From: Paraspadella gotoi
Lineage: Eukaryota; Animalia; Chaetognatha
Assembly (NCBI GenBank): GCA_051294375.1
Contig: CM119271.1
Location: 10,543,376-10,607,375, forward strand
Length of the DNA: 64,000 nt
Direction: 5' to 3'
Notes under the pieces: generated by a model
Database searches by the model: none
What the model saw: only the letters and a program-made list of their open reading frames with translations
Told to the model about the DNA's origin: nothing
Shown: positions 4,922 through 57,100 of the stretch, in pieces
How positions within the stretch are numbered: the stretch's first letter is position 1
Layout: each line of letters begins with the position of its first letter
Translations under genes and position numbers: made by a program

Positions 4922-7900
4922 AAAACCCTCACTTTTTCCCCTCTTCAACTCACTTTTCCAACCTTTCTTTAACTCACCCTCCCAATCCTTCCCCCCTCCC
5001 CCCCACAAGGTGGCGCGGCGCGGCGCCAAATTCGGCGTCACGGCGCCGCAACTCGTCCGCCTCGAGGAAGAGATCGACCGGGAGATCCTGGAGGACGTGA
5101 CGACGCCTTGGGAGGAAGAGGAAGAGGAAGAAGAGGAAAAGGCCGTTAGCGTCAAGTCGGAAGAGGAAGAGCGGGACGAGGAAGAGGAGAGGAGAAGACT
5201 GGAAAAAATGTCTTTGGATCAATTGGTAAGTTTAACTAATGAGTATTAAGTATTAAGTATTATATTTTATGTATTAAGTATTAGGAATTAGGTATTAGCA
5301 TTAGTTATTAAGACAAATCATTACTTTATCTCATAGTATCAAAGTCACGATTATTATTAGAAATTCAAATTGAATGGTTTTAACCGGGCGGAGAACCGAA
5401 AGATTGATCAACGTCCTTGTATAAAAACTTTCTTTATTTTTGTATTCCTCAATCTTTGCTCAAGAACTAGTGCAATGCCTACGGCAGCCTCACTTAATTA
5501 AAAGCATTTTCAAACCCTAAGAAATTCAAATAATAAGCAAAATCTAAAAATAAACTCGTTGTTTGCAAAAAAAAAAAGTAAAAAAAAAAAACTAGGTCGA
5601 AAAAATATCTCGCGGGAAAATTGAAGAGAAAGATTCTTTGTGAAACTGAAATCCTTCACAGTTGGAAACTTGACTTGTGAAAGTTAAAGGAAAAGTTTTT
5701 GAGGAAAAACAATTCTTGTTGTATTTATAAAAAAGAAAGATAAAAAGAAATGTCGGTTGTATACATAATATGTATTACATATCTTGTAAGAGAGCTAATT
5801 GGTCCTAAAATAACAGTAAACTTAGCTCTAGTAGTTAAGTTATAAGTTATAAGTTCCTTCCTTATGATCTTATTATAATTAATTTCATGGTGAGATTGAT
5901 AATAAGGGGACGGAGTTGAAAGCTAGGTATGTCATGGCCGATGATGTTGCGTCTTTAATAATATTGATAAAAAGTGTCATTCTATCGAAGGCATGAAATT
6001 GGGAATACCAATATAAAAATTACCCATTCATTTAATAAATAAGCTATCGTTCCCCTTTCTTTGGACAGGTTATATTATTCGGAGGAACAAAAGTAAAACA
6101 AACACGATCTTGCAATTTTTTTACACCTCGTGTATTTTAAAAGTCATGTTTATATGTTTTTTTGTATATGTTTATTCCAACTTTTGCGCGAGATAAGTAG
6201 AGGCTTCAACTAACGACTCACCCTCTCCTCACCAAATTTGGATGAATTCCAAACATCTTCCCCAAACATCTTCTCCCAATAAACTTTCCTCCCAACAGAA
6301 GTTTAAAAAAAAACATGAGTTCTAAGTTTCTAACATCGTTGGCAACTTTGCGAGCGATGTTGTCGTCTCCGCTGTCGTTGTCGTCGTCGTCGTCGTCGTC
6401 GTCGTCGTCCACTTGGATTTATTTCAAACCACCTAATTTTCTCCCTCGCATTTAAAAATCCCGGAAACCCAATGTAAATCCTTCCGTTTGAAAAAAAAAA
6501 ACCCAAATTTTTAAAATTCCAATGATCTCTTTTTTCCTAAAAAAAAAGTTGATCACTTTTTGATACTAATTAGAAAAAAAATTAACTCGATTATATAATT
6601 ATAAAATACTATTTCTATTAGATTTTTTTAATGCTTTTTTAAAGTTCTTTGGGAAAGTGAAAATAAAAAATAAATTTACTCGTATTTGAAAGGTTTAAAA
6701 AAAATTTTAAATACATTTCATAATTTTTAAAGTTAATTTAGAAAAAAAACTGTAACTAGAAAAAAAACTTTATTATCTTTTTTGTGTAGACCAAAGGTTC
6801 AGAAACGTATTCCGGGACATCTTATAGGAGGGCATATTGCCTCAATTTCACTGGTCAACAAATCCAATCAAAAACTCCATATATTCCCCTTTTTTTCATT
6901 CCCCGCGCGCATTTTCAAAAGATTTTCCTCATTAAAATCCAGTCGATCTCCCACTAAGACCACGAGACCCCCAACCTCCGATTCTCCGCGTCCAAGTTCC
7001 CCATTCCATTGTCTCCCCAACTTAACTTAACTTAAACCCATCGATTCCTCTCACCAACGACGCGTGTGAGTCCCACCGCTTTTTTTCGTCGTCGTCGTCG
7101 TCGTCCCGATCGCTTTCGCGTCACGTCCGGAGTTTCGATACTGTCAGCGTGATCGAGCTTTCACAGCAGCACGCGCAGCCAACCGCGAGACACGGTGGGA
7201 CGTCTGGGTCGCGATCGTCACCTACGAGGAAAATGGGCGAGGGGGGGTTGTGAATGGTGCGTGCGTGGGCTGTCTGCGAAGGACATGCCCGATCGGGTGA
7301 GACTCGGCCCAGAATGGCCCGGACTGATTTTGAGTAAAGGGTAATGTTTTCTCACCGCCCCCCTCTTTTTTCTAATCAGGAGAAAAAGATCTCTTCTCTC
7401 TCTCTCCCGCTTTACTTTTAAGAATCAATTTCTCCCGCGTTCACTCTTTAGTTAGATCGGGAGAAAAAAAACTAGTGGGTGGTCAATGACTGGTCATATC
7501 GATTCGCTGGTCGGTATCTCCCCGCAAAAAAAAAAATGCTGCAGTGAGAAACGGTGTTAGTATCGATGACCACTCTCCCCGGGGGACTTCGATATCAAAG
7601 TCGGCGAATGGGACCGACTATCGGCGATTGAGATCGCTCGCTAAAGAATCCACTCTCTGACTCTCTGTCGCTTTCTAATCGCTCTCTTTGTTTTTTAAGA
7701 AAGCGAAATAAAGTAGTTGGTATAATTTTGGATCATGCGGGAGATTTATAAAGACAGACAAAGGTCGTTGTTTTTTCTGTCACTTACGTATCACTCATTA
7801 ATCAGCAAGAATGAATTTTTGAGTTGATTGTAATTTACCGATTCGTTTACCTCTCCAATGCCAATGGACTCACTTTCGTCAAAATTTAAGTAAATATATG

Positions 7901-8888
7901 AGGAATTTGTATAAATCATTAGTGAGTTAATGTTTTCCTTGGAAGAAATTTACGACAATCAATGTTATAAAAAGACTTTATCATTGTGGTTATAGAATTT
8001 CAAAGCGTTTTCACTATGTTAAAGATTTAAAGATCTTCAATATAATTATATTGAAGAGACAGTAATTATTGTTATGTGTTAGTGACAGAACCGTTCAATA
8101 TAAGCAGTCCCTGAGCTTGGGATCATGCAGTAACACCGTGTTACAGGCGGATTAAGTGCCCCGTCCCTCTTAACTGCTAGGCGACCATCGAGCTAGAACC
8201 CCGGACCTTTGGTTGTGGCGAACTGACTGTCTGCCGCACCAATGGCTGCTTGATGACATGGTTGGGATTTTACCATCCAATAATCATCCCCCCTGCCGTA
8301 GGAAAGTCTGTTATAGTCTCTATGCAGTGATTTGCTTGCTTGGTGGAAAGTTGTCACAAGTTGAATGCGCATGGTCGATTGCGTGGCGTGAAAGTGCATC
8401 GTGAGTTGAGGAGCATGTCGCTCTGAAAGTTTGTTGTTGCTGCTGTTGTGTTCAGATAAGTCAGCTCAAATGAAGAGACAGTAATTATTTTGTTTATGCA
8501 GAAGTCAATAAGCATCCCTGTGCTTGGTCAGCTGTACACATGTTAAGGAGTTAAGCGCCCCGTCCTGCTTAATGCAGGCGCCACGGGGATACCGGACTTG
8601 TCGATATGGGTCATCATGACTTAGCCTCCGGACCAATGGCGGTACGAGAAACGATGGTGGATTTTAGTCCACCATAATATCTAGTAAAGTTGTAAACTTT
8701 TAGTAGATTCTAAAGTCGGAAACAATCCGGATGCCGGATGCCGGATGCCGGATTCCGGATGTTAGGGTTGATTAATCATAAACCTAAGATTCCCAGTCCC
8801 CACTCCCTTTACGGAAATTCCGATTTTTCGGGCCCAATAAAAGTCCATTTCGGACAAAAGATATTCATATTTTCCCCCTAGAAAAGTC

Positions 8889-15935: not shown

Positions 15936-16437
15936 CTCTCTCTTCTCCTTGCTCGGGGGGGGGCCGTTTCCTGGATCGACGGCCGGAAGTGGCAAGCGAT
16001 CCCATCGTTCTTCAACCTCTCGGAATCGCGATGATGTCTCAGGATCACGGAGTCACTCGTCGTCGATATAGGAGTCATTATAATATTTTTTTTTTTTTGT
16101 GGATGGAATCACGGGTTCCGGTGAATCGTTCAGGATGCGGAGGTTAATAATTATCAGTGGTAAGTAAAGTCGATGGTACAATTGTTATTAAAATATCATA
16201 TTTGAGTGTTTGGTCATTGATTCAAAATGATGGCGTTATGTTTCTTATGAAATTGGGTACAACCAATATAAAAAATTATCCATTCATTTAATAAATAAGC
16301 TATCTTGCCCCTGACTTTGGACGGCTTTTGTGGTGAAGGCCTCCATCACTTCTGTACAGATAATGATATGTAAAGATATGTAAGCTTAGTACTTTGGCAT
16401 TTAACATCAAACGTTCAACCCGCGCGATTCCCTTTTA

Positions 16438-16815: not shown

Positions 16816-18952
16816 GTGATTTCATCGTCATTCCCATCCCTCCTGTCCTTCCGCCTCTCCTCGGCCAAAGGGCGGAACTTCTCTCTCTTCCTCCGTCTCT
16901 TCCTCATCTTCTTGGTCCTCGTGATCGTCGACGCTCAAAACCGGAACTCCCTCTCCAAGAGACGCAACGAGGAGGACGGTCGAGGCGAGAGCGGACGGCC
17001 CTTTAGCCGGAAGGCGCTGGGCGAGAGAGGGCGCGGGCAATCGCGCGGGAGGGGCAGGGNNNNNNNNNNNNNNNNNNNNNNNNNNNNNNNNNNNNNNNNN
17101 NNNNNNNNNNNNNNNNNNNNNNNNNNNNNNNNNNNNNNNNNNNNNNNNNNNNNNNNNNNNNNNNNNNNNNNNNNNNNNNNNNNNNNNNNNNNNNNNNNNN
17201 NNNNNNNNNNNNNNNNNNNNNNNNNNNNNNNNNNNNNNNNNNNNNNNNNNNNNAGGCGGACGGACAATGGGATAAATTTTAATTTCGCCGTCCGCGATTT
17301 TGGCGGCTTTTAAAAAACCATTTAAAAATACATATTTTTTTAAAAAATTTTAGAGATGAAACGAAAAAATCGTTGGAATAGCAATTTTTATTTTTATTAT
17401 TATTATCTACCTCTCAAAAAAATTTTTAAAAAATATTACTTAATTACCAAAACCCTAAACCCTGTTAACCCTAACCACCCCTAACTATTAACCACCCTTA
17501 ACCCTAACCCCTCCCTAACCCCGGTCGGCGTAAGTAAAAGTAAAAATATTATTATAAGTTTATTGAATAGTCTATTAAATAATGATTAAAAGTTTTTCCA
17601 TCTATACGTCTTGAGAAAAAAAAAAGGTTTTTCAAACATCTTTTTATCTATTGGCAACGAACCACAAATTCTACTCCATTGATTCACAAACCTATAACTC
17701 ACCCAATAACTAACCCTTTCCTCTTTCAGGCGGCAAATGACCGACTTTCTGATGGCGAGCATGAAGAACATCAACAGCAATCAGGCCAACGCCAAGACGG
17801 ATGGCTTCTACCTGCCGACCAGCATCACCAAGGCTTATCACTTCAACGCCGTCCAGGTCGTCCTAAAAAACTACACTCCCAAGGAGATCCTCGGACAGCT
17901 CTGCAATCTCGTCTTCAAGGAAGACGTCAACGCTTTGCTCGTCGTCAACAACAAGCCGCTCTCAGGGACGTCCGTGCCCACGCCGCAGTATTTGTCCAGG
18001 CTGGGTGAGGAGCGAGAGGGGGGCGGGGTGAGGGTTAGGGATTTTTTTTTTGTTACAACGATTTATATTTACGTATTTATTTATATATGAAATTGGTACA
18101 ACCAATATAAAAATTATCCATTCGTTTAATAAATAAGCTATCTTGCCCCTGACTTTTGACAGGCTTTGGTGGCCTCCATCACTTTTACAAGATAAACGTA
18201 AGAGTCGAAAAATATCCGAATTATGAAGGTTCGAATACAATGTCTAACTTATTAACCAAAAATGTAAAAATCCAATTTTAGCTGTTCTAAATTTTGTTTG
18301 CCTTTAATTAAAAAAAAAAAACATTACCGCCTTACATAGATCGCCTTCTACAACGTTAGTGACATCTTCAATTCTTTACATAAAGGTCCAATGCAAAACC
18401 AAATTATTATTCAACTTTTTTAAAAGCTCCGGTAAAAATTTGATAAAAAAAAAATTGTAGAAAAACAGATACAAAAAAATCTTGGAAAAACAATACTACA
18501 AAATGCAAATGAGATTGAAGGAAACAATTCTCCGAGAAACGAATCTACGACACAACCTGTCACTGGACAGTTGTCAGGATCGATGAGCTCGATCTTTCCG
18601 GCAGTTTAAAGATAATACTTTAAAAATAAAATAGTTATTAATGTAGTACATCTATTTTTTAATTTTTCAGCCAACCATTGGGTCTTTCCCATTCTCTCCT
18701 GGAATTCGGGAATCCCGGTTTGGGTCAGAAGAACTCGGATTCCCTGATGCTGCAATGGCGCCCTCCTTCGAGCATCAATGCCGCGCCATGCTTATAATAT
18801 TAGGTATTGTTAAAATAATCGCATGCTGATTAAACATTAGTAAACTTATTATTTTTTTTTTAACATTGTCTTAGATATTCCTATGACTGGTGCAAGTTTC
18901 GGTAATAACCTCTACTCTCCGGGCGGCCACGATAATTTTATCCAGGTGAGAG

Positions 18953-19023
<71 letters not shown>

Positions 19024-19599
19024 ATAGATAGATAGATAGATAGATAGATAGATTATACATGGACCTAGGTACCCTCTGCAAGAAGGACCTATATAAGGTA
19101 ACGATGGGTCCGTTCATTCATTGATCTCCGTTTTCTAATACAGAAAGCAACTTTTTTTTTAACTACACAGAAAAAAAATGTGTATCTACTAAAAATATTA
19201 GTATTCAGAAAAAGGAAAAAAAAATAGTAAACCACACAAATACTTGATTCTCAAGTAATTCCTAATGGCGTGCGACCAACAATGCTTCATCTTAAATAAC
19301 ACATAAGGCATTCCCTAATATCAGAGAGAGAGAGCAGAGAGAGAGAGAGGAGAGAGAGAGAGTAACAACTAACAACAATGGTTGGTTCTCAGGCCGTTCG
19401 CGCACGGTCGCCGAGAGAGACACAGAGAGAGAGAGAGAGAGAGAGGAGAGAGTAGAGAGAGATAACAAACAATGGTTGGTTCCCAGGCCGTTCGCACACG
19501 GTCGCCGAGAAAGAGAGAGAGAGAAGAGAGAGAGAGAAGATGAGAGTGAGAAGAGAGTAACAAACAATGGTTGGTTCCAGGCCGTTCGCAACACGGTCG

Positions 19600-19642
<43 letters not shown>

Positions 19643-22600
19643 ATAAAAGAATGTTGTGTTCCCAGGCCGTTCGCACACGGTCGCGAAGGTTCGCCGAATA
19701 CAGAATTGCGGCGAAGGATTTGACTTTTGTCGGCGAAAAGTATCGACGCGAACTTCGGATGCCAACATGGCGGAGATCAAGGTATCCTGTGTTAAACTCT
19801 TGCTTGGTTGTCTGCTTATTTGCTTGCTTTCTATCATTTCTTTACTGGTTTGCTTCTTTGGACTGGCTTATNNNNNNNNNNNNNNNNNNNNNNNNNTTTT
19901 CTCTCTTTTTTTCTTTTTCTTTTTTATTTTCTTGTTTGTATTCTACTTTCTTTCTTTTCTTTTTCTTTCTCTTCATATTTTCTTGGTAGATTTTAAGAAT
20001 AAAATTTTTGTGATTAGAAATTTAAGTCTTAATAAAGTTTAAAAAAATTTATAATATCATTAGGAAAGAGAAAACAGCAATGCCAATAGTAAAATCTATC
20101 CTTATAAATTTCCTTTGAAACCTGAATACGAATTGACAGAACCTAACTTAAGTTATTACGAAATTCAATTGTTTAATTTCCAGTCGGGTCTCAAGGAAGT
20201 CGACAAAGACACTCGCATCATTTTATTCTACGCGAGTCGAGAAGAAGCAGATCTCATCTTCAGAGCCGCAAATGAGCTCAATATGACCGGACGCGAACAT
20301 CTGTAAGACCCAAAAACTAGGCGGACATCCGTACTTCATCCTAAATGAATTAAAATAAACTAAATTTCTACGCAACTATGTATTAGCCTAATAAGTAGCT
20401 TGATACATAATTGTTTAACAGCTCAATTGTTTATATTATTTTTTCCATCTTTGTCGCCAGATGGATCGTGACTCAATCTATCATCAGCGAAGATGTGATA
20501 AGAGAAGAATACAAACCTCAATACATAATTCCCAAATCATTTCCCATCGGTAGGTTTACAATTTACTATGGTGGACTAAAAATCAACCAAACTGAAGAGA
20601 CAGTAATTATTGTTATGTGTTAGTGACAGAACCAGAGATGTGGAAGCGATCGATTTTTCCGCCGCTACCAATCCGGCGCTTCCAAGACCCTCCCGCTCCC
20701 GTTTTCGGGTGCAATCCTTACTTTTTTAGCCCGGATCGCTTTCGGTTTCGAGTGCACATCGCTTCCTTCCTTTAAAATTTTACATTTGTTACTATTTATA
20801 AAAATACTCTCTTTAGACATGTAATTCATTGGTAAAATAATTTTAAACAATCTTTTTGTTAACAAAATAACATGTTAAATTTTTTACTATGAAAAATTGT
20901 AAAATTTGTAAGATTGTAAGAATCGTTTGAGTGGAAATGAATTTAAATGAAAAAAAACAAAAAACCTTTTTCCCTATTTGCTTTTTTTCTTTTTATTAAA
21001 TATAAATACAAGCTGCATTAATTATTCAATTAATCAATTAATTAATCAATCAATCAACTAAACAAACTAAATCAAAATCATTTAAAAAATTAATGAATCA
21101 ATTTTTTTATCAATCAATCAATAATCAATTAATTTATCAATCAAACTAATTAATAAATTTATTTATCAATAAATTATTAAAAGAACCAATTAATTAATTA
21201 ATCAATTAATTAATCAATCAATTAAACAATGTCAGTGTTATCATTGTCATCTCCAACGTCGTTGTTGCTTTTGTCCTGGTCAATGACCTGACAAAAAGAC
21301 CTAAAAATTAACAAGGCCTGATATGAATTTATTTTATTTGATTCAATCAAATCATTCAATAATCATAATGGTGCTATCCTTGTTGTCATCATAATCATCA
21401 TCATGGTAGTCATTTCGTTTTGTTATAATGAAAAAACAAAAAACCAAACAAGTTTGAGCTAACAATGCCAGAACTGATCAGTTAATTAATTATTCAATCA
21501 ATTAATCAAATATTCAATCAATCAATCAAAAAATTAAGCAATCAATCAATTTGTCATCGTCGGTATTATCATTGTCGTGGTTGCCATCATTAATTATTTA
21601 ATTAATTAAACTCCTTTATCTTTGTTGTACATTTGAAAAAATGTATCCTATTATTTATTTATCCCTGTTGTTTTGTTTCTCTCTCTCTCTCTCACTCTCT
21701 CTCTCTCGTCTCTCTTAACAAGTTTCACTTCTTTTCAACAACTCACTCATTCTGCCCTTACCTTCAACTGTCCTCAGATCTGACCACTATTCTGTCTCAC
21801 CACTTTGTTGGAAAAACTTTTACCCTCTCTCTCTCTCTCATCTCTCTCTCTCTCTCACACTCTTCTTTTAACACAAATTTATTATTGAATATCATATGCT
21901 GATGAAGGCTTGAAGTAAACAAGCCGAAACATGTCCAACTATTAATTAAAAAATCGTTGTTACAAATTCAAAATTCTTTGCTTTCTTTAAATTAATAAAA
22001 ATTTTATAGAAAATTTGAGGCATGTTTTTTGTGATAAAGAAAACCTGGTATTATCAAAAACAGTAAAAAAGTAAAAATGATAAAAATAATAACAACAAGA
22101 ACTAGTAATTACATTGGCTGAGAAAAGGTCAGCCATAACAGGATTGGGTAAAAATAGGTTATTCTTATTGACCACTACTGTACTACGGCTCACAAAGTAC
22201 AAAAACTTCGTCGTCGTTTTCGTCCATTGTATTCATCGTCGTTGTTGTCTTTGTTCAAATCATTTGAGCTCCCAAATGTTTGATGTTATTATTTTAATTA
22301 ATTAATATGTAATTAATTAAAATAATTTATTTTTTTTAATTAATCAATTAATTACCGCTAATGATCGTGGGCAGATCCGGATTTGTTTGCTCAAACTTGT
22401 TTATTAATAATTTTAATTTATTTATTTTAATATATTTTTTTATTTGCTTTTTTGTTCAGTGCAAGAGGGGAAAAAAGAAATCTTTTTTTCAGCTCAGATT
22501 TTATTTGAATATATTAAAAAAAATAATTAAAAAAAATAAATATGTAATTTTTTTTTTATAGATTCTCGACCAAAGAGAAAAAGAGAATAAAAGAAAAAAA

Positions 22601-25600
22601 AGATAAAAGAAGAGAATAAGAAAAAGTGAAAAAAAATTAAGAGCAAACAATTTTAAATGTTGAAAATAAAATATTAAAACAAATTTTTAAAAGAAAAAAT
22701 CAAGAAAGAGCAGGGGGTTGCAATATTTTAATACATTAAATACCTTTCATTTCTAACCAATAACAAATGACCAGGAAGCGAACACGCAGGGTATTATTAT
22801 AGCTTCCGGGTTCAATCCTTTATTCTCAATTTTTCTATCGCTCCCGGTTTCGGGTTCTTCAAAAATCGGCCGCTTCCACAGTGTTCGCTTACGCTTTCCG
22901 GATCGCTGTCCACATCTCTGGACAGAACCATTCAATATAAGATTAAGCAGTCCCTGAGCTTCGGATCAGGCTGTAACACCGTGTTACAGCCGGGTTAAGC
23001 GCCCCGTCCCTCTTAACTGCAAAGGCTGGTGGATTTTAGTCCATCATACATCTCCCCCTCCTGTAGGGAGAAGTCTTGCGTCTCTTCAGTGAATTGTTGT
23101 TGTTGTTGGAAAGTTCGTCACCAAGTTGAGGCATGTCGCTGATGTGTGATTGGCGGAGAGTGCATCGCCAGGTTGAGGAATGTCGCCTGAAAGTGTTGTT
23201 GTTGTTATGTTTGGAAGTCGGGCTCACCAATGAAGAGGCAGTAATTATTGTTATGTATTAGTGACAGAACCGTTCATATAAAGCAATCCTGAGCTTCGGA
23301 TCAGGCTGTAACACCGTGTTACAGCCGGGTTAAGCGCCCCCCCCTTTAACTGCTAGGCGACCAACGGTTGGTGGATTTTAGTCCACCATACAACCATTCA
23401 TCAGCGGCCATTGTTGGGGAGGCAAGTCATTCGCCTCCCAACCCAAAGGTCCGGGGTTCTAGCCCGGTGGTCGCCCCAGCAGTTAAGAGGGACGGGGGCT
23501 TAACCCGCCTGTAACACGGTGTTACAGCCCGTCTCTTCATTATTAAATATTAATAATTAATTAATTAATTTTTTTTCAGGGTTGTTGGAATACATTACGA
23601 AAAATCTCGAGAAGCGCTATTCAAGGAATTGAGAGCGGGAACTTACGTCTGGGCCAAAGGAGTCGCCAATTTCGTTAAAAAACACGAAAAACTCAACCTT
23701 TTCCGCACAAAAAGTTTTCCTGCGAGGGTGAGTTAAAAGATTTTTCTTTTCTTTGGGGGGGGGAACTCTGAAATCGAATTTGATGCGAAATTGCGACTTT
23801 GTGACGCAGAAAGCGGGGATAAAAGCGCTTCGGTCAAGTGGAAATACGGAGAAGAAATGTACAAGAGTATTCGTAAGAATTTTATGATTGAAAAAAAATT
23901 TTCAAAAAAAAAAAAAAAAATTGGAAAACGTTTTAATGTTTTTCTACAACGACTTTATTTGTAAAAAACGTACATGTTTGGGCTTACATACAAGCCTTCT
24001 TCAGCGTTAACAAATTTTTACAAAACAAAAAAACAAAAAAAAAAAAAAATTTGTTAACGCTGAAGAAGGCTTGTATGTAGCGAAACCGTACGTTTTTTTA
24101 CAAATAAAGTCGTTGTAGAAAACATTAAAAACGTCAACCACAACGAAAAGAAGGAAATTCACGATGAAAAAAAAAATTAAAACGCTGAAATGAAAGAACA
24201 AATCTCTTTAATAATTCAGAAATGTCAGCGTGACATTCGAGGGCTGACAAAGGATTTGAAAATGGCCGATAATAAAACTGTGGACTTTAACGAGGACGGG
24301 ACGGTGCGTTCCGTGGATTTAGTCATCATCAACTTGAATCGGGAGAGAACTTGGGATAAGATTGGCGAGTTCAGAGGTGATCGATGATAATGCCTAGTAT
24401 GTATTGACCTTATTTTATTTCAAAATATGAACATGAGCTTGACCTGCTGTGTCATTATCTTGTAAGAGTGAGGGAGACCTTAATCCACCATAGCTTGTCC
24501 AAAGTCACAGGCAAGATAGCTATTTATTAAATGAATGGATAATTTAATATTGGTTGTACCATATACATACGTGTAATTGATTCTCTAACGTCAAAGCGCT
24601 ATTCAAATATATTCTTAATATTTATTTTCTCTTAATTACGGTATTTTAAACTTTATACACCCCTGCAAGGAACTTACTTGGAGATAAAGGATATCGTTTG
24701 GCCCGGGGGATCGAGAACTCATCCGATCGGAAGACCGGAGCGATATCAATTGACCATCGTGACTCTCAGAGAAGAACCTTACGTTTTTCTCAAAAAAATG
24801 GATCCGAAATTGGACAAGTGAGATTAGAAATGTGCCGGGCAACACTGTATAGTAGGGTGGAGTGATGAAAAGATTAAGCGAGTTAATAATATTTTTTATG
24901 TAATTAATATGTAATTAAAGAAAATCATGCCTTTTATAAAAAAATTTTAGCATAACAGTAGAGCAAATTGTATTTTCTTTGTAACAATATCCTTATAAAA
25001 TTTTTAAATTTCAAATTGATTTTTTAAAAATTTTAATAACAGATTGAAAAAAATAATAAACTTTTATAAAATATGTTATATGATATTTTAATGTTAAAGC
25101 TACGAAAAATGATAAAAATGGTTTATAATATAATAGATTCTATTACAAAAAGTTCAAAAGTTGAGATTTTTTTTTCTAATTTTGTTACTGAAGACAAATA
25201 AATTTATATTTTTTGTCCAACTTTTTATAAGAAATTTGATCTTTAAAAAAATTTTAAAAAATTATTTTGAAATTTTTTTATTTTATAAGGATATTACTAT
25301 AAGTATATTGTATTTTGCTTTTCTGTTCACAAAATAATATTAACAAAATACTTTTTATATTTAATAATCATGATGAAGACTCTAAACAAAAAGAGTCGAA
25401 ACATAGTTTAATTGAGGCTAATCGGTTTAAATTTTTTTTAGATGTTCATCGGTTAACGACAAGCCTTGCTTCGTTCCGAGATTGGGTCTTCCATCTGACG
25501 TGACCAACTTGACTGACTTATCACTCGCTCTTCAGAATGGAACCGAAATTCAGGGACTTAACTACACAGGTGAAATTGACAATTTGAAAAGTCATGCACA

Positions 25601-43855: not shown

Positions 43856-45770
43856 ATCAATTCAAGAGACTAGACGCTTAATCATTGATTTATGTTTCAA
43901 TTTTGTTTAACTAGTAACTAGATCTATTATTATGCTCTCTGTCCCTTACAATAATAATTGTCGATTACCGAGAATAAAAACGGTAATAATTTGCCCTCTC
44001 TCAATTCCGCTCAAATATCCGGTTTTTCCTGTACTTGATGTCGTGATTAATCTTTTGAAAAGTACATATGGATGAGGCAGAATTTGAAGCGAATTGAATA
44101 ATTGGATTGTAAATTAAAATGTAAACCTGTCGCTGTAATGTTCTGGACTAATCTTAGCTAAAGAATCAAAAGTGTTTTATTCAATATTTACCAATTCATT
44201 GCTTATTTCAAGATGTTTCTCTATACTTTAGTCATTTAATGTGTTAATTAATTTAATTAATTTAATTTATTTTACCATTATTGTTATCACTTCTGAAAAG
44301 AATTTGCTAAATACTGCAGCTACGTATGTACTTTTATAATTGTTAACGTTATTTAGGTTGCTGTGTTAGATGCACAGTAGCGATATCTGGAGTATATATC
44401 CTTTTAACTAAGAATTTGATGACTACGGAATAATAAATATTCGTATTTCTTATTCAACATCCACAAGTTATGAAATTACACTATTCTGGTGAAAAATTTC
44501 CAATTTTAAATACTTATTTATAATCTTATATCAAGATCTTCTTGAATTCTCGATTTTTATGCTGGCATAAATTTTGAAAAATGAGTTGTTAAGGAATACC
44601 GCGCTAATACGTACCGAAATCGAGTTTTATTGTTGATCAGAATCGAATCAAAGGTGGAAAACATTTTTAAATTCATAACCATGTGCTTGAAGTAAAAGCT
44701 ATCCAATGACATAAAGCTTTTTCTGGTCATTATCGTTGAAAAATAAGTTAGAATTAAAGGCAATATTGCTAGCTGCTTGTCGTTTTCTGCTGCAATCATA
44801 CTAGAAATTAGACACCTGCAGTTTGTAAGAGAAATTGGTATTGGTGTTGACTTTCGCATAACATTGACCTAATAAAAATGGTTTTTATTCACTATTCAGC
44901 CAAATAAGATACATACTAGGGATACAATGACAAATGACATCCGAAGTAATAAAATATATTTTAAAATTAAATTTCTTTGTTGCAAAATCAATGAAAAAAA
45001 AACACACTGGAACAAGCAACAGACGAGACGTGAAAGTTTTAATTTCTCGATATAATGGATAATCTTTTTGCAACGTTAAGGAAACAATCTGTATCAATGA
45101 ACATATGTTGTTTAATGTTTATTAAACAGTAATTTGTTTATCCGTAACCAGGGATCGATTAGTACGAGAGACTTTTATTCTTTTTTCTGAGGAGGAAGTG
45201 AGGAGAGACTCCTATTGATGAAGAGGAAAAGGACCGGCCTAGTCAATAGAAAGAGGAAGAGGAAGATATCCTCTTCCGTCATGCCGCCGCCGAGGAAAAA
45301 AGAAAATGGACGTCGCCTTCCTGAGCTGATGATAAAATTTGACAATTTCGTTCATTAGAAAAATTGAGAAACAATTATTGTTTATGCGGATAATATGAGT
45401 ATATATGTGCGTGGTGGTTTCTCCTGATCGTCTAAATACATCACGGAAAATGAATTTGACGGAATCGTGGCGCTTTCTAAGATCAGTTTGTCTTTACCGA
45501 TTGAAAAGTAAGGTACAAGATGCTTATTTTTGGTTTCATTTTAGAGAAAGGGTGTAGCGGGTTGGGGGTAGTTATTTATGAAGAATCGTTAAAGCACAAT
45601 TAGCTGTTACTTATTGCGTTTCAATTCTTTTAAGCATTGTTTACAAATTAAACATTTTCAGACCTATATGTAGAACTTTTGATGAGAATTACGATTTGAT
45701 TTGTGATTTCAGATTACCAAAGATTTGCCTTATTGAAGCTCGTACTTTTGATGTCCTGTAATTAAGAACA

Positions 45771-48435
45771 ATGCATATAAAGCACTTGAAAACCATCGTC
45801 CCTCCCCAAGAGGGCGCGGCAAAGATACAAGCTTTGGCTTGGGCACCCAACAGTCAAAAATTAGCCGTCTGTAACGCGGATCGAATCATCTCTCTTTATG
45901 ATGAATACGGCGAACGCAAGGATAAGTTCGCCACGAAGCCCATCGAGGCCAGATTCGGCCGCCGGAGCTATGTAGTGACCGGGCTGGCCTGGTCTCCCGA
46001 CTCTACCAAGCTCGCCGTGGCCCAATCCGACAACATCATCTACGTCTACAAGATCGGCGAAACCTGGGGAGACAAAAAGGTCATCTGCAACAAGTTCGTC
46101 CAGCAAAGCGCCGTCACTTGCATCTGTTGGCCGCCCGATCAACACATCGTCTTCGGTCTCGCCGACGGCAAAGTCCGCATCGCCAATACGAAGAATAACA
46201 AGTCCAACACCGTCTACGGCACGGACTCTTTCACCGTCGCCGTCACCCACAACGTCTCCGGCAAGGGTATCCTCTCCGGACACATGGACGGCACCGTCGT
46301 CCGTTACTTCTTCGACGACGAAGGCAGCGGCGACGCTCAGGGCAAATTGCTCAACCACTCCGTCCCGCCCTACGCGCTCGCCTGGGCGCTCAACTCGATC
46401 GTCATCGGCGGATGCGACCGCAAAGTCGTCGCCTACGGGAGAGACGGAAAAGTCATCCAACAATTCGACTACAGTCGGGATCAGGACGAGAGGGAGTTCA
46501 CTTGCGCAGTTCCCTCGCCCAGCGGACAATCGGTGGTCATGGGATCCTACGACCGTCTGAGGATTTACAATTGGAGTCCTCGCAAGGGTCAGTGGGAAGA
46601 GTCGCGCAGCAAGGATATCCCTTACCTCTATACCATCAGCTGCTTGAGTTGGCGCAAGGACGGATCCAAGCTCGTTTGCGGCACGCTTTGCGGCGGAGTG
46701 GAGACCTTTGACTGCTGCCTCAAGAGAACCATCTACCGCAACAAGTTCGAGATGACCTACGTGGGATTGAGTCAGGTCATCGTGAAGAATCTCTCCACCG
46801 GGTCGCGCGTCGTCCTCAAGTCTCACTACGGTTACGAGATCGACGACGTCAAGATTCTCGGCAAAGATCGATACTTGGTCGCCCACACGACGGACACCCT
46901 CCTCCTCGGCGATCTCCAGACCAACAAGCTCTCCGAGGTTGCCTGGCAACGCAGCGCCGCCGATGCCGCCAAGGAGAAGTTCTACTTCGACAACGACAAC
47001 GTTTGTCTTATCTTTAACGACGGGGAGTTGTCGCTCGTGGAGTACGGCGCCAACGAGATCCTCGGCAGCGTCCGGACGGAGTTCGTCAACCCGCACTTGA
47101 TCTCCGTCCGCATCAACGAGCGGAAAGTCAAAGAGTCGGACGAGAACAAGAAGATGGCGTATCTAGTGGATCTCAAGACAGTCGCCATCTTGGATCTCGT
47201 GTGGGGAATCAACGTCGCCCACGTGACCCACAACCACAAGATCGATTGGTTGGAGCTCAACGAGACGGGGAGGAAGCTGCTGATCAGGGACAAGCAGCTC
47301 AAGCTGTATCTCTACGACATCGCCACGCAGCAGTTGACCACGATGCTGCAGTATTGCTCCTACGTGCAGTGGGTGTTCGGGTCGGACGTAGTGGTGGCGC
47401 AGAATCGCGGGAATCTATGCGTTTGGTACAACATCGACGCCCCGGAACGCGTCACCATGTTCCCCATCAAGGGCGACATCGTGGAGATCGAGCGGGAGAA
47501 AAACCGGACGGAGGTGATCGTGACGGAGAACGTCTCCACCATCTCGTATCGCTTGGATGAAGGCCTCATCGAGTTCGGCACCGCCATCGACGACGGCAAC
47601 TGGAGTCGCGCCGTCAAGTTCCTCGAGGGGCTGGAGATGACGCCGGAGACGGAGGCGATGTGGAAGACGCTCGCCAAGCTGCTCCTCGAGAACAACGAGC
47701 TCGGATTCGCGGAGAGATGCTTCGCCGCTTTGGGCGACGCCGCCAAGTGTCGCTACTTGAGGGAGTTGAATCGGATCGTGGACGAGGAGGATCGATTGGC
47801 GGGGACCAAGACGGGGATCAATCATTATCGAGTCCGCGCTCGGTTGGCCGTGCTGGAGAAGAATTTCAAAGACGCCGAGGATATTTATCTGGAGCAGAAT
47901 TCCGTCGATGAATGCATTCAAATGTACCAAGAGTTGCACATGTGGGACGACGCCATCGCAGTGGCCGAGGCTAAATCCCATCCGAGGTTGGTTTTGGACT
48001 TTTTTTTCAACTGTCGTAAATGGGGAAAAAGCATTGCTTACGTTTAATCAATATCGTTTTGATAAAATAATAATAATAATATTCGTCCAAGTAAATCTGA
48101 TGATTTTTTTCAGATTCTTTCATTATTTTTCTTCATACTATACTATACTATGAAATTGGTACAACCAATATAATAATTATCCATTCATTTAATAAATAAG
48201 CTATCTTGCCCCTGACTTTGGACAGGCTTTGGTGGTTTAAGGCCTCCATCACTCTTACAAGATAATGACATAGCAGGTCCCTGCAAGCTTTCAATCAAGA
48301 CTCTCTCACAGTCCCGTTAATTCACTCCCAGAGTATAGTACTATAGTATACTATAGTATACAAAATAGAAAAATATCGTTTATTTGAAAAATTCTTTAAA
48401 AAAGGAAAAAAATGAATTCCTTTTTAGAAGACTGA

Positions 48436-48481
<46 letters not shown>

Positions 48482-51400
48482 GAAAATGCATAATGAAATG
48501 TAATTAAATTGAAAAACTAACGGAAGTTTTAAATTATATTTAGAAAACTTTTTTCTTTCACCCAAGGTTGGACGAACTCCGTTCCAACTTCTACAAATGG
48601 CTGACGGAATCTTCCCAAGAGGAAAAGGCCGGCGAATTGAAGGAACGTGAAGGGGATTATCTCGGCGCCGTCGATCTCTACCTTCGAGCGGGTCTTCCGG
48701 CGAAAGCGGCGGCTCTGGCCACGACCAGACCAGAAGTCCTTAAACATGACGACGTCGTTCAACGCATCGCGGCCATTCTCATCAAGGGAGAATTCTACGA
48801 ACGCGCCGGCGACCTCTTCGAACACGTCCGCGAAAACGACCAAGCGCTGGAGTGCTATCGCAAAGGCAACTGCTACCGCAAGGCCGTCGATCTGGCTCGG
48901 TCCAAATATCCGCCGAAGGTCGTGAGGCTGGAGGAGGAGTGGGGCGACTACCTCGTCCTCCACAAACAGCTCGACGCGGCCATTAATCATTTCATCGAGG
49001 CCAACGCTCTCGTCAAGGCCGCCGACGCCGCGATTGGCTCTCGCCAATGGCAGAAAGCCGTGCAGATCGTGGAATTGCTGGATCCGGCCACGGCGGAGAA
49101 ATACTTCAAGAAATTGGCCGAACACTACGCGTTCGTGGAGGATTTCGACAACGCGGAGAGATTCTTCGTCGCCGCTGGATGCATCAAGGACGCCATCCAA
49201 ATGTACAACGAAGCCAGTCGCTGGGAAGACGCCCACCGTCTCGCCTCTCGCTGCATGGACGCCAAGGAGGTCTCCGAGCTCTACCAACGCCAGGCGAGGA
49301 AATTGGCTGAAGAAGGTCGATTGAAGGAAGCGGAGCGTCTCTACATCACTGTCCGGGAGCCGGATTCGGCAATCGCCATGTACAAGCGAGCCAAGCAGTA
49401 CGACAACATGATTCGTCTGGTCAAGCAGTATCATCCCGATTTGCTGCAGGATACCTACATCCACGTAGCCAAGGAAGTGGAGAACGAAGGCAAGCACAAG
49501 CAAGCGGAGCACTTTTACATCGAAGGCGGTGATTGGCGCGCCTGCGTCAACATGTACCGTAACGCGGACAACTGGGAAGAGTGCTACCGAGTCGCCAAGA
49601 CTTTCGGCGGGAATTCTGCCTCCAAACAAGTCGCTTATCTTTGGGCCAAGAGCCTCGGCGGCGACTCGGCCGTCAAGTTGCTCAGCAAGTTTGGTCTCCT
49701 CGAGCAGGGAATCGATTATGCGATGGAATCTTATCATTTCGATTTCGCTTTCGAGTTGGCTCGATCCGCGATGACGTCCAAAATGGCCGACATTCATTTC
49801 AAGTACGCCATCTTTCTCGAAGACGAGGGTCGCTTTCGTGAGGCTGAGGCGGAGTTCGTCAAAGCCTCGAAGCCGAAGGAGGCCGTCCTCATGTATGTGC
49901 ATCAGCAAGACTGGGACGCCGCCCAGCGGGTCGCCGAGGAGCACGATCCTAAGTCCATGTCCGACGTGCTTGTTGGTCAGGCGAAGATTGCTTTCGACAA
50001 CAAGGACTTTGCCAAAGGCGAGTCGTATCTGCTCCGCGCTCAGCGGGCCGAACTTTGCATCCAATTGTACAAAGAGCTCAACATGTGGAAGGACGCGTTG
50101 AGAGTGGCCAAGGAGTATTTGCCAACTCAATTGGCGACGACCCAAGCGGAATACGAACGAGAAGCACTCAGCAAAGGCGCTCGCGGAACCGAGGCTCTCA
50201 TGCAGCAAGCCAAAGAGTTTGAGAATACAAATCAGCACGCCAACGCTGCCAAGCTTTACATCAAGATTGCTCTTCAAAGCGACGCGGACGGCAACAAAAA
50301 TAACAGCAACTCGGCCAATCAAGCCGTCGCTTGCATTCTCCGCGCGGTGGATATTACCTGCAAGTTTCTGGAGCCGCAGCACACGACCTCGGTGGTAAAG
50401 ATGGCGGCACCGAAGCTCCTCGCGATGGAGCGCTACACCGAAGCGGCCAAGATCTTTGTCGCTGCAGGAATGGAGAAGGAAGCCGCCGACGCCTTTATAC
50501 AGGGTGGGGATTTTCCCAGAGCGCGGCAGTTGGCGAAAGAGACGGACCCTAAACTGGAGGCTTACGTGGAACAACGTTACAAATCGTCGTTGGTGGCGGC
50601 AGGAAAGGCGGAGGCGTTGGCTACGGTCGACGCCGGCGCCGCCCTCGATCTTTTCGTCGAGAAGGGCGAGTGGGACGAATGCATCGCCACCGCCGAGAAA
50701 CAGGGCTACAAGGTTCTTCACAAATACGTGGCTCTTTACGCGAGCAAGCTGATCAAGGAAGGAAACGTTGAGAAGGCGCTCTCTCTTTACGCCAAGCACG
50801 GTGCTCCGACGAATCCAGAAAATCACAACATCTACAAGCGGTTGGCGCACGAGCTCTTTTTCGCCAAGTCGATGAACAAAGCCTCCGCTTATCAAACGTG
50901 GGCCAATCTCCGCGACGTCCTGCACGACCTCTGTGAGAATTTCGGCAAGAGTTCTGAGAACAACTCGAAGACCCACAAAGAGTTCGAGTCGCTGCTCATC
51001 GTCGCCCACTTTTTCGCCATCCGCTCCGCCTGTCAGAGTCAAAAGGCGTTGGAGGCGCTCGCCGTCAAAGTCACCGTCTCGATGCTGCGCTACACGGAGC
51101 ACATTCCGGCCGACAAGGCCTTCGTGGAAGCCGGCATGGCATGCAAGGCCATCGGATGGGAGAACATGGCTTTCGTCTTCCTCAACCGGTTCCTGGATTT
51201 GCACGAGGCGATCGAGGACGGGAGTCTCGACGCCGTCGACAATTCCGACTTCAAAGACACCGACATTCCCTTCGACGTTCCGCTGCCCGAAAAGCCGCAT
51301 CTCAGCGACGCCGAACACGACGAGATCAAGGAGTGGGTCCTCACCGTCTCGATGGACGCCAAGGTGGAGCAAGTGCTGCCCAAAGACGAGAGAGGAGTCT

Positions 51401-51642
51401 ACGAAGCTTCCCTCGTCGCTCCGGACACGGGCATTCGATCCCTGCCCTGCGTCATTTCCGGATATCCCGTCCTGAGAAACAAGCTGGACTTTCGTCGTCC
51501 CGGCCGCGCCGCCAACAAGGAAGATTGGAACAAGTTTGTGATGGCGATGAAGTCGTCTCACAGTTCGGAATGTCAGGACGTCTGCAAATTTATCGGGCAG
51601 TGGTGCGGAACGTCTCCCAATCCCACTTATAATTTTCAGTGA
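45771..51642 (+). CDS. IFT172: Intraflagellar transport protein 172 (WD40 + TPR-like), 1763 aa, single intron 47987-48566
   Basis: MHIKHLKT…[12 protein letters not shown]…DKFATKP…[11 protein letters not shown]; exons 45771-47986 and 48567-51642 join in frame (5292 nt); C-terminal CVISGYPV…[18 protein letters not shown]. Confidence 0.98.
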
Positions 51643-54178: not shown

Positions 54179-57100
54179 ATGAGAAGTTCGTCGATGACTT
54201 CGCCGAAATCCCTGAAAACGCCGTCGTCTTCGTTGGGCGCGGCGTCGTCGCCCAAGAGGACCAAGGGTTCCACTGCCTCTTCGCCGTCCAAAGATGGCGG
54301 GAATCATCATCCGACGTTTCCCTTCTCCGGACGGAAGGGGGCGCGGCTGCCGACGCCGACGTCGACGAGGAAGAAGTGGAGTTTCGGCGCCTCCGTCGAT
54401 GTCGACGGAAAAGGGAGCGACGCCGCGGGTAAAGAGATGGGGTTAAAATATTTTTCAGATGGTGCGGGAATTTTTGACTGAAGTCGCCAATTTTTGTTCT
54501 GAACTGAGAATCGATATGTTTTTTGGAAATACATATTTGGCATAATTAAGTATTTTTGAAATTTGTAAAACTTTTTTTTCCATGCTCGTGACAATTACAT
54601 TTTTTAAATTATAGTGATGATTGATGAAGAACAAAAAAATTATCCAAAATTAAAAACTCTTTTCTTTTGTGATGTAAAATTATTTTTTACATTTGTTTTA
54701 ATTAAACTAATGACATCCCACAGGTCCGTCGTCCCCTACTCGCCTTTCATCCCCAAGTTCCAACTCCTTCACAAATCTCATTTCTCGCCTCGCACAAAAC
54801 GTCTCAGTCATGCGCGTCGGTTCTCTCCGCAAATCTCTCTCTCCGCCCAAGCGCAACCGCGGTCGGAGCTTCAGCGAAGGTCCCGTCGAGGAGACCTCGC
54901 CTCCCAAGTCGGTCGCCGAATCGGACGGCTCCTTTCCAGTCCGCTCTTTGCCCCGGGGTCGGCCTGGCCGCTCCTCGCCGGCGCCGCTGGCTTCTCGCTC
55001 TACCTTCAGCTCATTCCCGCTCGACGGCGACCGCGGCGTCTCGGAACTGGACGCTCAGAGCTGGCGGCGTCGGCGAACGAAACCTCTCGCTCAAAACCTC
55101 GACGACGCCTTCGCCGCGGAGAGTCTGCCGCCGTCGACGCCGCGGCCCGAGTCTTCTTCTCACTTCAACGCCTCCTCGCTCAAATCACCGTCCGTCGGGA
55201 AACTCTCGCGAACATCTTCCTTTCAACAGAAGAAAGATCAAATTCGCGCCATCTTGGGAAAGAGTTTCTCTCGCTCCTTCGCCGAGGGCGGGCGGAGAGA
55301 AGGACCGGAGGGTTTCGCGACGGAACTCTTCCTCGCCGTGGAGGCGGAGGACGCAGAGAGAGTTCGCGCGGCGCTGGCGAAGGAGGCGGCGCACGAGGAT
55401 CTTCGCGTCGAGTTCGTCGTCAACAATCAGGGATTCACGCCGCTCGACGTCGCCGTCATGTTGGGCAACCGCGTCGTCGCCAAGTTACTCATCGCCCACG
55501 GAGCGCGAGAGGCGCCAGAGTTCGTGGCGGACCCTTTTTCGCGCAGCAACAAGATCCTCGACATGCTTGAGAGGTGCGAGCGGAAGATCGAACAGTTGAC
55601 GTTGGCTCTCGTGCGGAACGGAGCCGAGGGCAGCGTCTCGCCGGGGGAGGAGGCCAAGCGAGTCGGAGTCGACGAGCGAAACAGCGGACAGGCTTTGGCC
55701 TTTTGGGAACGACAGCGGCGACTATTCGAGAGAATGCAACGGACGTTCCAAGGGGCGGACATTCCCGGCCCGCCGGAATTTGTAAAGCTGGAAGTGGCGG
55801 GCTCCGAATCGTTGATGATAACTATCTCCGAGCCTCGACGGTCGGGTGGTGCGTTGGTCACGATGTACAAAGTGGAGTGGAGCGGATCGTCGGACTTTGA
55901 GACCCTCGAGGGCGAACTCACCGCCTTCGGGGTCGACGATGTCAACGTTAAAATCGGCAGCTTGATTCCCGGTCAATCATATTTCGTCAGGGTCTCGGCG
56001 ATGAATCTCAAGGGTTGCGGACCGGCCAGGGCAGCGGAGCCCTTTTCCGCCGTGCCCTCCAGTTGGAAAGAGGTGTGCCCTGGACGCCGGTGCGAACCCG
56101 GCGACGGACTGTTGAAACTCAACGCTTTGATCGACGAAATTCTCGGCTGCGGTTCTTACTCGTCTCGAGGATTCGACGGCCGCAGCGGGAGAAAGCGAAG
56201 CTTCAAGAACATGTTCGTCGGTAGCAGCAAGATGGTCAAGGGAACGAATCCTCGCAGAGGCTTCTACTTGGCCTGTCTCTTGTACCATGAAAATCTCCTT
56301 CTGGTGACGCCCGACGGGACGCTCCCAATGTGCAAAGTGGACGACGTGGCTCCCAACGGCGGGGCCCTCGTCGGCGACCTCCTCTGGTTTATGAAGGTGG
56401 CGGCGACTTGGGACGACGTCAAGAGTCTCCAACAGGAAATGTCCTGCGCCGGCGAAGAAGTCTCCGATGCTTTGCAGTGGAGAATAAAGCTGATCGACGC
56501 CGCCGTCCTCATGCAGAGTTTTCTGGGGATCAAAAACTTAGGTCAGGTCAACTACACCGTGGAGAGAGATTCCAACGGGGTCGTCGTGCTATTGCTCGTC
56601 AAGAACGTCCTCTACCCGAATGTGTTGCGACCCGGGATCGGCCGCTGGATTCCGCAAGACTTCGTGCTCGACCGGATTTCGACGACGATGGCCGAAGGAT
56701 CGAGCGTTGAGAATCTTATGCGGAAATCCTCGGAGATCGTGCAGGTCCACGGCTCCGTTAAAAAATTGCTTCCTAAAGGATTGCACGTGGGTTACCTAAA
56801 ATTGATAGGCAGCATGGATCAAATCAACATAATCGTTCCGGAAAAACTTCCCAACGTTCCGCCTCACGTCAAAGTCCGAAACAACTCGAACATTTCCAAA
56901 GGAGAATGGCAGCACCTGCTCAGCGGAAATTGCAATAACATTTCTAACTGCAAACGTAACTCGGAATTCTATCGGCAACTCATCGAGTCTATGTGGGAGC
57001 TTCAGCGACTTCTCTCCATCCCCGAGTCGTCCTTCAGAGATCACAGACTCTACACTCGCGAACTGATCGAACTGGACGAAGATCGATCATTGCTCATCGT

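Follow-up and report, generated by a model that had tools for sequence, protein, structure and literature searches.

Why should a tRNA-like segment stand directly beside a putative self-cleaving ribozyme motif inside a long terminal repeat (LTR)? The question is raised by a 64,000-nt stretch of DNA from the chaetognath Paraspadella gotoi (GenBank assembly GCA_051294375.1, contig CM119271.1, positions 10,543,376 to 10,607,375, forward strand), here called the window, in which an earlier note had described a 72-nt tRNA-like cassette upstream of a twister ribozyme. The cassette lies in an LTR of a non-coding terminal-repeat retrotransposon in miniature (TRIM) of about 650 bp, which has TG...CA ends, a primer-binding site (PBS) of the tRNA-Trp type and a polypurine tract (PPT). 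From its sequence the element is very probably of the Helenus type (TRIMp3). On the same grounds the cassette is a tRNA remnant and not a functional tRNA, and it is followed after 2-3 nt by a twister-like motif. The parts of the flagged copy are as follows.

20565-20592, plus strand: solo LTR, left part (start and hairpin), found by self-comparison of the window
23393-23539, plus strand: solo LTR, right part; ends in TCTTCA, with about 65 bp deleted after 23529
23404-23475, plus strand: tRNA-derived cassette, 72 nt, in the right part of the solo LTR; from sequence, Rfam, fold and ARAGORN
23411-23422, plus strand: degenerate box A region, with no TRGCY and no A14 (compared with the Helenus motifs in PMC10886601)
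23455-23464, plus strand: box B, with GGTTC and the GTTCNANNC core both there
23479-23529, plus strand: 5' part of a twister-like motif (P5, P2', L1', linker, UAA, P2, GC and P3), mapped to Table 1 of PMC8501958; P4, L4 and the 3' part of P5 are deleted

The sequence, length and position of the cassette are as first described, and so is its outer structure. The acceptor-like stem is paired at all seven positions (one of them G-U), and the T-like hairpin has five of five pairs in a register shifted by one base. The inner arms are more worn: the D stem keeps 2/4 pairs and the anticodon stem 3/5, the latter closing a 7-nt loop with CCC at its centre. The Gly(CCC) identity proposed earlier is this putative anticodon, read by cloverleaf register only. 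In the minimum-energy fold a single hairpin takes the place of the D and anticodon arms; this fold has a z-score of -3.2 and was equalled by none of 200 shuffles.

The Rfam tRNA model aligns with the cassette from end to end at 18.9 bits (E 0.43 over 4227 families; cut-off 29 bits). ARAGORN, when relaxed to -ps91 and downward, calls a tRNA-Gly(CCC) 'possible pseudogene' at 23404-23478, and only 2 of 1000 shuffled cassettes pass at -ps90. Over the whole window -ps91 gives three calls; the other two fall in a GC-rich 18-bp tandem repeat at 39415-39618, which is a source of false relaxed tRNA calls. The CCA at 23476-23478 is specific to this copy, and the same positions are highly variable in public sequencing runs. 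A blastn search of the cassette against phages returned nothing beyond matches at E=10. Self-priming by the cassette was considered and rejected, since there is no complementarity between its 3' end and the PBS.

Self-comparison of the window revealed five LTRs of this family. Two of them belong to an element, copy 2, which is on the minus strand and lies between the two parts of the solo LTR; two others belong to a degraded element, copy 1.

23231-23392, minus strand: copy 2 5' LTR; cassette lost but for its last 8 nt, with damage in the twister L1' region
23369-23388, minus strand: hairpin of 7 bp close to the LTR 5' end, before the cassette position
23217-23229, minus strand: PBS, 12/13 complementary to the 3' end of tRNA-Trp (Fig. 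S2 of PMC10886601)
23051-23230, minus strand: copy 2 internal region, 180 bp, without an open reading frame (ORF) of at least 120 aa
23051-23062, minus strand: PPT, a run of 12 purines directly next to the TG of the 3' LTR
22921-23050, minus strand: copy 2 3' LTR, main piece; cassette deleted at another junction
20593-20632, minus strand: copy 2 3' LTR, end; 38/40 match to the 5' LTR end, separated from the main piece by a DNA transposon
8052-8286, minus strand: copy 1 3' LTR, degraded; no other window LTR combines a cassette (here 8180-8249) with a full-length twister (8104-8177)
8287-8470, minus strand: copy 1 internal region; PBS and PPT degraded
8471-8676, minus strand: copy 1 5' LTR, strongly degraded; cassette at about 8577-8643

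Copy 1 spans 625 bp in total (8052-8676, minus strand), and none of the 99 window ORFs of at least 120 aa overlaps the elements. The boundary at 23231 is sharp: in four runs, 118, 116, 73 and 36 loose-ended contigs stop there and continue into unrelated flanks. Because 20565-20592 and 23393-23539 join into one LTR, copy 2 appears to have inserted, in opposite orientation, into a solo LTR from the same family, at a point immediately before the cassette. Insertion targeting near RNA polymerase III (Pol III) start sites is a possible reading of this one case. Target duplications measure 3-4 bp and are too damaged for a firm call: copy 1 has a 4-bp match if the last two LTR bases were lost, copy 2 has a 3-4-bp overlap with errors, and the solo LTR has none. 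Hairpins equivalent to that at 23369-23388 are also seen at 23027-23046 and 8655-8674; in the Helenus supplement, read by eye, many animal LTRs have a short inverted repeat just before the tRNA-like part (PMC10886601). Numerous small indels separate the copies from one another; age or long-read error may account for them.

The DNA transposon that splits the copy 2 3' LTR is itself non-coding, measures 2.3 kb (20633-22920) and has terminal inverted repeats starting CAGAGATGTGG. It is flanked by an 8-bp target duplication (20625-20632 and 22921-22928); we take it to be hAT-like from the traits of that family.

How general is the cassette? Besides the flagged copy, the earlier note had listed that at 8180-8249 (minus strand), which matches it at 58 of 70 nt; it has no Rfam match and folds no better than shuffles (z -0.3). 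With the degraded third copy at about 8577-8643, which the note had missed, the cassette is present in three of the five window LTRs, always at the same LTR position. It is indeed gone from both LTRs of copy 2; the deletion in the 5' LTR spares its last 8 nt and that in the 3' LTR takes all of it. Their junctions differ, and the deletions look like damage to an old copy and not like a subfamily.

At the level of the family, the evidence is drawn from contigs of six public runs. The summed contig depth of the element exceeds that of single-locus contigs by a factor of thousands; such sums count overlapping contigs repeatedly and are taken only to mean 'abundant'. On the copy 2 3' LTR, summed depth in run X1 is 1.2-3.8 million over most of the twister and falls to 42,000 at the cassette-less junction. 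Among the loose ends listed for this run at 23016-23024 (5, 105, 30 and 12 contigs; 152 in all), the sequence continues into the cassette, while the cassette-less junction is crossed in none of the 25 pieces listed from 4194 records. At the 5' LTR of copy 2, 18 contigs of run X1 lead from 23363 into the cassette. Reading outwards from the twister, the cassette comes next among the listed loose ends of all four runs concerned (X1, X8, X9 and X10). Run X8, possibly an RNA run, is not used here to argue for expression. Run X10, from organism B, has a single contig with both modules; as this may be carry-over, we do not take organism B to be a second host. No relatives turned up in two pattern scans of metagenomes. 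The run data indicate that the cassette is the norm of the family's LTR; the claim that only some LTRs carry it is not supported for the family.

The neighbour of the cassette is twister-like, which supports the reading in the earlier note, and its 3-nt distance from the flagged cassette is confirmed (the motif starts at 23479). Its strand order is that of type-P5 twisters: P5, P2', G-A with three T1 bases, a 6-nt linker, UAA, P2, GC, P3, P4, L4, P4' and P5. A complete motif is found in the 3' LTR of copy 2, with the following parts.

22947-23020, minus strand: complete type-P5 twister-like motif, copy 2 3' LTR
23020-23015 and 22952-22947, minus strand: P5
23012-23009, minus strand: P2'
23008, minus strand: G45
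23006-23004 with 22964-22962, minus strand: T1
23003-22998, minus strand: linker
22997/22996, minus strand: U^A, the predicted cut site
From 22994, minus strand: P2, then T2 (GC), then P3
22970-22966 and 22957-22953, minus strand: P4
22965-22958, minus strand: L4

UAA at the predicted cut site, G45-A46 and the L4 sequence UCCNAAGC are all present when compared with Table 1 of PMC8501958. Pseudoknot T1 pairs at three of three positions in this copy. Its third pair is G-C, against C-G in the seven Schistosoma twisters published there (one of which differs elsewhere in L4); both sides have changed, so the pairing is kept. T2 (GC/GC) is in its usual register in 99% of run depth and lies a single base further along in window copy 2. 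P4 has 5/5 pairs, and P5 closes the ends with 6 bp. The variants listed for the runs cluster in P3; as this list favours the middle of the aligned part and omits an L4 change at about 9%, no conservation of the core is claimed.

P1 is replaced by the self-complementary 6-nt linker. In cis only 1 bp and a tetraloop could form, where a type-P5 P1 has at least 2 bp, though P1 is dispensable in twisters; between two copies the linker pairs with itself over 6 bp (-8.3 kcal/mol). Natural P1-type twisters, of which about 1900 were assayed in the study reported in PMC11662667, tolerate defects in P1, P2 and P4 and are sensitive to changes in the pseudoknots and catalytic bases. Since bulges and deletions in P1 and P2 are tolerated there, and pseudoknots and catalytic bases are intact here, this comparison argues for activity.

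Overall it is highly likely that the motif is a true twister fold, and intact copies are probably active. In the flagged copy the predicted cut would fall at U23501^A23502, inside the ribozyme and 26 nt past the cassette; this copy lacks P4, L4 and P5 after 23529 and so cannot be an active ribozyme. Other classes were tried by eye on both strands, using general consensus features or those given in PMC11620745: hammerhead, HDV-like, pistol, hairpin and twister-sister readings did not fit in order. Rfam gave no hammerhead match either. A second twister register, through an upstream GAGGG, was rejected because its UAA loop is missing.

How might these modules work together? Building on the observed LTR, PBS, PPT and non-coding anatomy, the tRNA likeness, the family-wide cassette, the twister elements with their pairings and the absence of a run of four T (T4) from the sense strand, we tentatively propose, with slightly less than even confidence, that the worn tRNA segment acts as an internal Pol III promoter and that twisters cut in both LTRs, leaving a unit RNA to be circularised and copied by the enzymes of autonomous Gypsy elements. 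Pol III would start near the equivalent of 23404 in the 5' LTR and read through into the flank. Cleavage at U^A in both LTRs would release a unit RNA of about 420 nt without a terminal repeat, which would have lost the cassette of the 5' LTR and kept that of the 3' LTR. The idea that the ribozyme trims the cassette off would thus hold for the 5' LTR and fail for the 3' LTR. A host ligase would close the unit RNA into a circle; tRNA-Trp would then prime reverse transcription by Gypsy enzymes, and copying around the circle would regenerate two LTRs. The promoter role itself, as suggested in the earlier note, is likely and agrees by analogy with the published Helenus design (PMC10886601). If the ribozyme is active, the circle is a likely route, for which plant LTR retrozymes provide the precedent (PMC4918200).

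A more speculative step concerns the linker in the place of P1. It might allow the ribozymes of the two LTRs to cut as a strand-swapped pair, in which case mainly two-LTR transcripts would be processed. Dimer cutting is a speculative lead and not a result. The full scheme, in which this would be the first animal LTR-type retrozyme (a Pol III TRIM whose twisters cut as a strand-swapped dimer through a palindromic P1 and whose circle of about 420 nt is reverse-transcribed by Gypsy enzymes), is doubtful as a whole.

Several observations weigh against the proposed promoter, ribozyme and circle. Of the tRNA similarity and A and B boxes expected in the earlier note, a weak likeness in Rfam and ARAGORN and a box B GGTTC kept in 2/3 window cassettes stand; ARAGORN at default settings does not call the cassette, and TRGCY of box A is absent from all three, which have a T-G-rich start and GG. 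Box A TRGCY and YGG are typical of most Helenus families and are not universal (PMC10886601). Both modules are undamaged in no window LTR. P2 in its common form has three pairs and a bulged A, where four are a type-P5 feature, and only 2/4 in the register of window copy 2; an altered P2 length might disrupt the twister active site, according to a review (PMC5408937). Four Rfam scans gave no twister match at E<=10. The twister-compatible nested fold reaches -13 to -17 kcal/mol (pseudoknots excluded) against -28.6 for a rival fold, and the lowest-energy dimer is not a swapped twister. A self-complementary 6-mer arises by chance in about 5% of cases, and it is intact in only two of the four correctly parsed LTRs. 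In favour of the twister, a descriptor composed from the letters of Table 1 of PMC8501958 matched twice in the window, both times inside LTRs, against no strict and one relaxed match in 200 shuffled windows and none in 20000 motif shuffles; this is weakened in that the descriptor was composed with the motif already in view and that its match in copy 1 came through a different register. A loose P5-twister pattern hit at least 120 loci in viral contigs, apparently by chance; of the 120 thus preselected, two, identical in sequence and with a poor P2, also passed a similar filter. Unlike retrozyme RNAs, neither predicted unit RNA is paired beyond the level of its shuffles (z -0.41 for the cassette-less copy 2, +1.79 for the degraded copy 1). 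The absence of T4 is weak evidence, as 604 of 2000 shuffles lack it as well.

Some of these observations would fit an ordinary Helenus with an inactive or very slow twister remnant, captured for example from another retroelement and amplified as a passenger. The short P2, the want of a normal P1, the missing Rfam match and the stabler rival fold all suit such a remnant; an active ribozyme 26 nt past the promoter would, moreover, destroy the terminal repeat needed for classical reverse transcription. We consider this unlikely: the common form retains its catalytic bases, the two pseudoknots, P4 and P5, the T1 pair has been swapped with pairing intact, and natural twisters tolerate such P1 and P2 defects (PMC11662667). 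The ribozyme could also be active and serve a Helenus simply as a terminator. Only the twister of the 3' LTR would then cut, forming the RNA 3' end; the cassette and the 26 nt after it, about 98 nt together, would remain as a terminal repeat for ordinary strand transfer, and no circle would be needed. The twister occupies the place of the T-rich tail of many published Helenus LTRs (PMC10886601), the sense strand has no T4, the stability of the unit RNA is unlike that of retrozymes and a competing inactive fold exists. Yet both LTRs carry the identical ribozyme sequence, and no feature was found that would block the 5' copy alone, so that we regard this explanation as rather improbable.

The remaining explanations dispute the anatomy or the ancestry. 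The earlier note had spoken of a chimera of short interspersed element (SINE), LTR and ribozyme; related to this are a SINE or a Penelope-mobilised tandem with pseudo-LTRs, in which 23393-23539 would be a fold-back arm, or a cassette that is a separate SINE in some LTRs. The inverted arrangement at 23304-23529, a summed depth of the cassette bins above that of the internal region, and the link of animal retrozymes to Penelope-like elements (bioRxiv 10.64898/2026.07.22.740005) could be read in this way. This is very improbable, and the chimera is not supported, given the PBS, the PPT, the TG...CA ends and the lack of a tail typical of long interspersed elements (LINEs). The inverted pieces 20565-20592 and 23393-23539 fit together as one LTR, a sign of nesting; the cassette has a constant LTR position in three window LTRs and in the runs, and it lacks a tail and flanking target duplications of its own. 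That the cassette might be a chance GC-rich hairpin with no tRNA ancestry is scarcely credible. It does score under the Rfam and default ARAGORN cut-offs, its D and anticodon stems are incomplete (2/4 and 3/5) and its preferred fold is no cloverleaf; against this stand the exact tRNA length and arm order, box B, the 7-nt anticodon-type loop, the 2 in 1000 shuffles that pass ARAGORN, and the same condition in published Helenus segments (PMC10886601).

The rest of the window contains features unrelated to the element. A full-length U2 small nuclear RNA gene lies at 43285-43477 (plus strand; Rfam 180.9 bits). The IFT172 gene (45762-51642, plus strand) is unusually intron-poor for an animal, with two very long frames of 761 and 1032 aa; its product is 66-68% identical to mollusc and vertebrate proteins (top of 179 matches). 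The frames are separated by about 500 bp holding a copy (48149-48279) of a second interspersed repeat. This repeat is about 130 bp long and has at least five copies, at 5993-6073, 16246-16369, 18082-18195, 24441-24569 and 48144-48279. A 1407-aa open frame at 54714-58937 (plus strand) has ankyrin and fibronectin type III matches near the Pfam cut-offs, and a tandem unit of about 95 bp is interleaved with AG runs at 19323-19703.

To our knowledge, most genomic twister ribozymes have no known role, and we know of no Helenus for which Pol III transcription has been demonstrated. An abundant family that unites the questions of twisters, LTR retrozymes and Helenus offers one short and inexpensive system for tests. 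With it one might learn how the RNA ends of a Pol III LTR element arise in the absence of a terminator, whether LTR replication on a circular template happens in animals, and whether twisters can act as dimers. The motif would also be a twister form missed by Rfam.

Among known systems the closest is Helenus or TRIMp3 (Kojima 2024), described as non-coding TRIMs, 311-1263 bp long, which have a PBS and a PPT and whose LTRs each contain a degenerate segment of tRNA origin; animal members have Gypsy-type PBSs, including tRNA-Trp, and 4-bp target duplications (PMC10886601). The present element shares with them two TG...CA LTRs, a PBS and PPT, a length under 1 kb, the lack of coding capacity, a tRNA-like LTR segment and box B, and in both the cassette is not matched to the element's own PBS. 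Box A is weaker here. In Helenus the tRNA-like part is mostly near the LTR 3' end and is followed by a T-rich tail (PMC10886601), whereas here the cassette is in the 5' half of the LTR and is followed by the twister-like motif and about 135 nt without T4. The idea of a tRNA-derived segment in a TRIM LTR is therefore already known. The word 'twister' does not occur in the text of the Helenus paper, which describes no ribozyme, and a motif search of its supplement, where line breaks could hide a match, gave no twister L4 in a twister context (PMC10886601).

Plant LTR retrozymes are similar in another respect: these non-coding LTR elements have a PBS and a PPT, both of their LTRs carry a self-cleaving motif, and Gypsy mobilisation through a circle has been proposed for them (PMC4918200). 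They differ in having a type III hammerhead, a tRNA-Met PBS, a highly paired RNA and, as described there, no tRNA-derived promoter (PMC4918200); the present element has a twister-like motif, a tRNA-Trp PBS, an animal host and a unit RNA that is not unusually paired. By analogy it may work like a retrozyme, while it departs from retrozymes in ribozyme class, primer and RNA stability. LTR retrozymes have been placed primarily in plants (bioRxiv 10.64898/2026.07.22.740005).

Type-P5 permutations of the twister have been described (PMC5408937, PMC10085705). The motif resembles these in strand order, UAA loop, the G-A of L1, the L4 sequence, T1, T2, P3, P4 and P5; it differs in its P2 of 3 bp with a bulge, the linker for P1, the swapped third T1 pair and the missing Rfam match. 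SINE-like hammerhead repeats of Schistosoma also place a self-cleaving motif after a tRNA-type promoter (PMC6765202, PMC4918200), and the T-variants of Perere-3 are twisters in an animal retroelement, of P1 type and at its 5' end (PMC8501958). Both are non-LTR elements without PBS or PPT, and the hammerhead is a different ribozyme class. Cassandra is similar in that the LTR of a TRIM contains a Pol III promoter derived from a small RNA; it is a plant element with a 5S-derived promoter, a terminator giving an 18-nt repeat and no ribozyme (PMC10886601). A tRNA-derived SINE has its tRNA head at the 5' end of the element and a LINE-type or A-rich tail; here the cassette lies within an LTR, and the element has a PBS and a PPT and lacks a LINE-type tail. 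In the mostly open-access literature searched and in the Helenus supplement, no report of a twister in an LTR element or of a ribozyme in Helenus was found. What is new is the coupling of a tRNA-type LTR cassette to a type-P5 twister-like motif in an animal TRIM.

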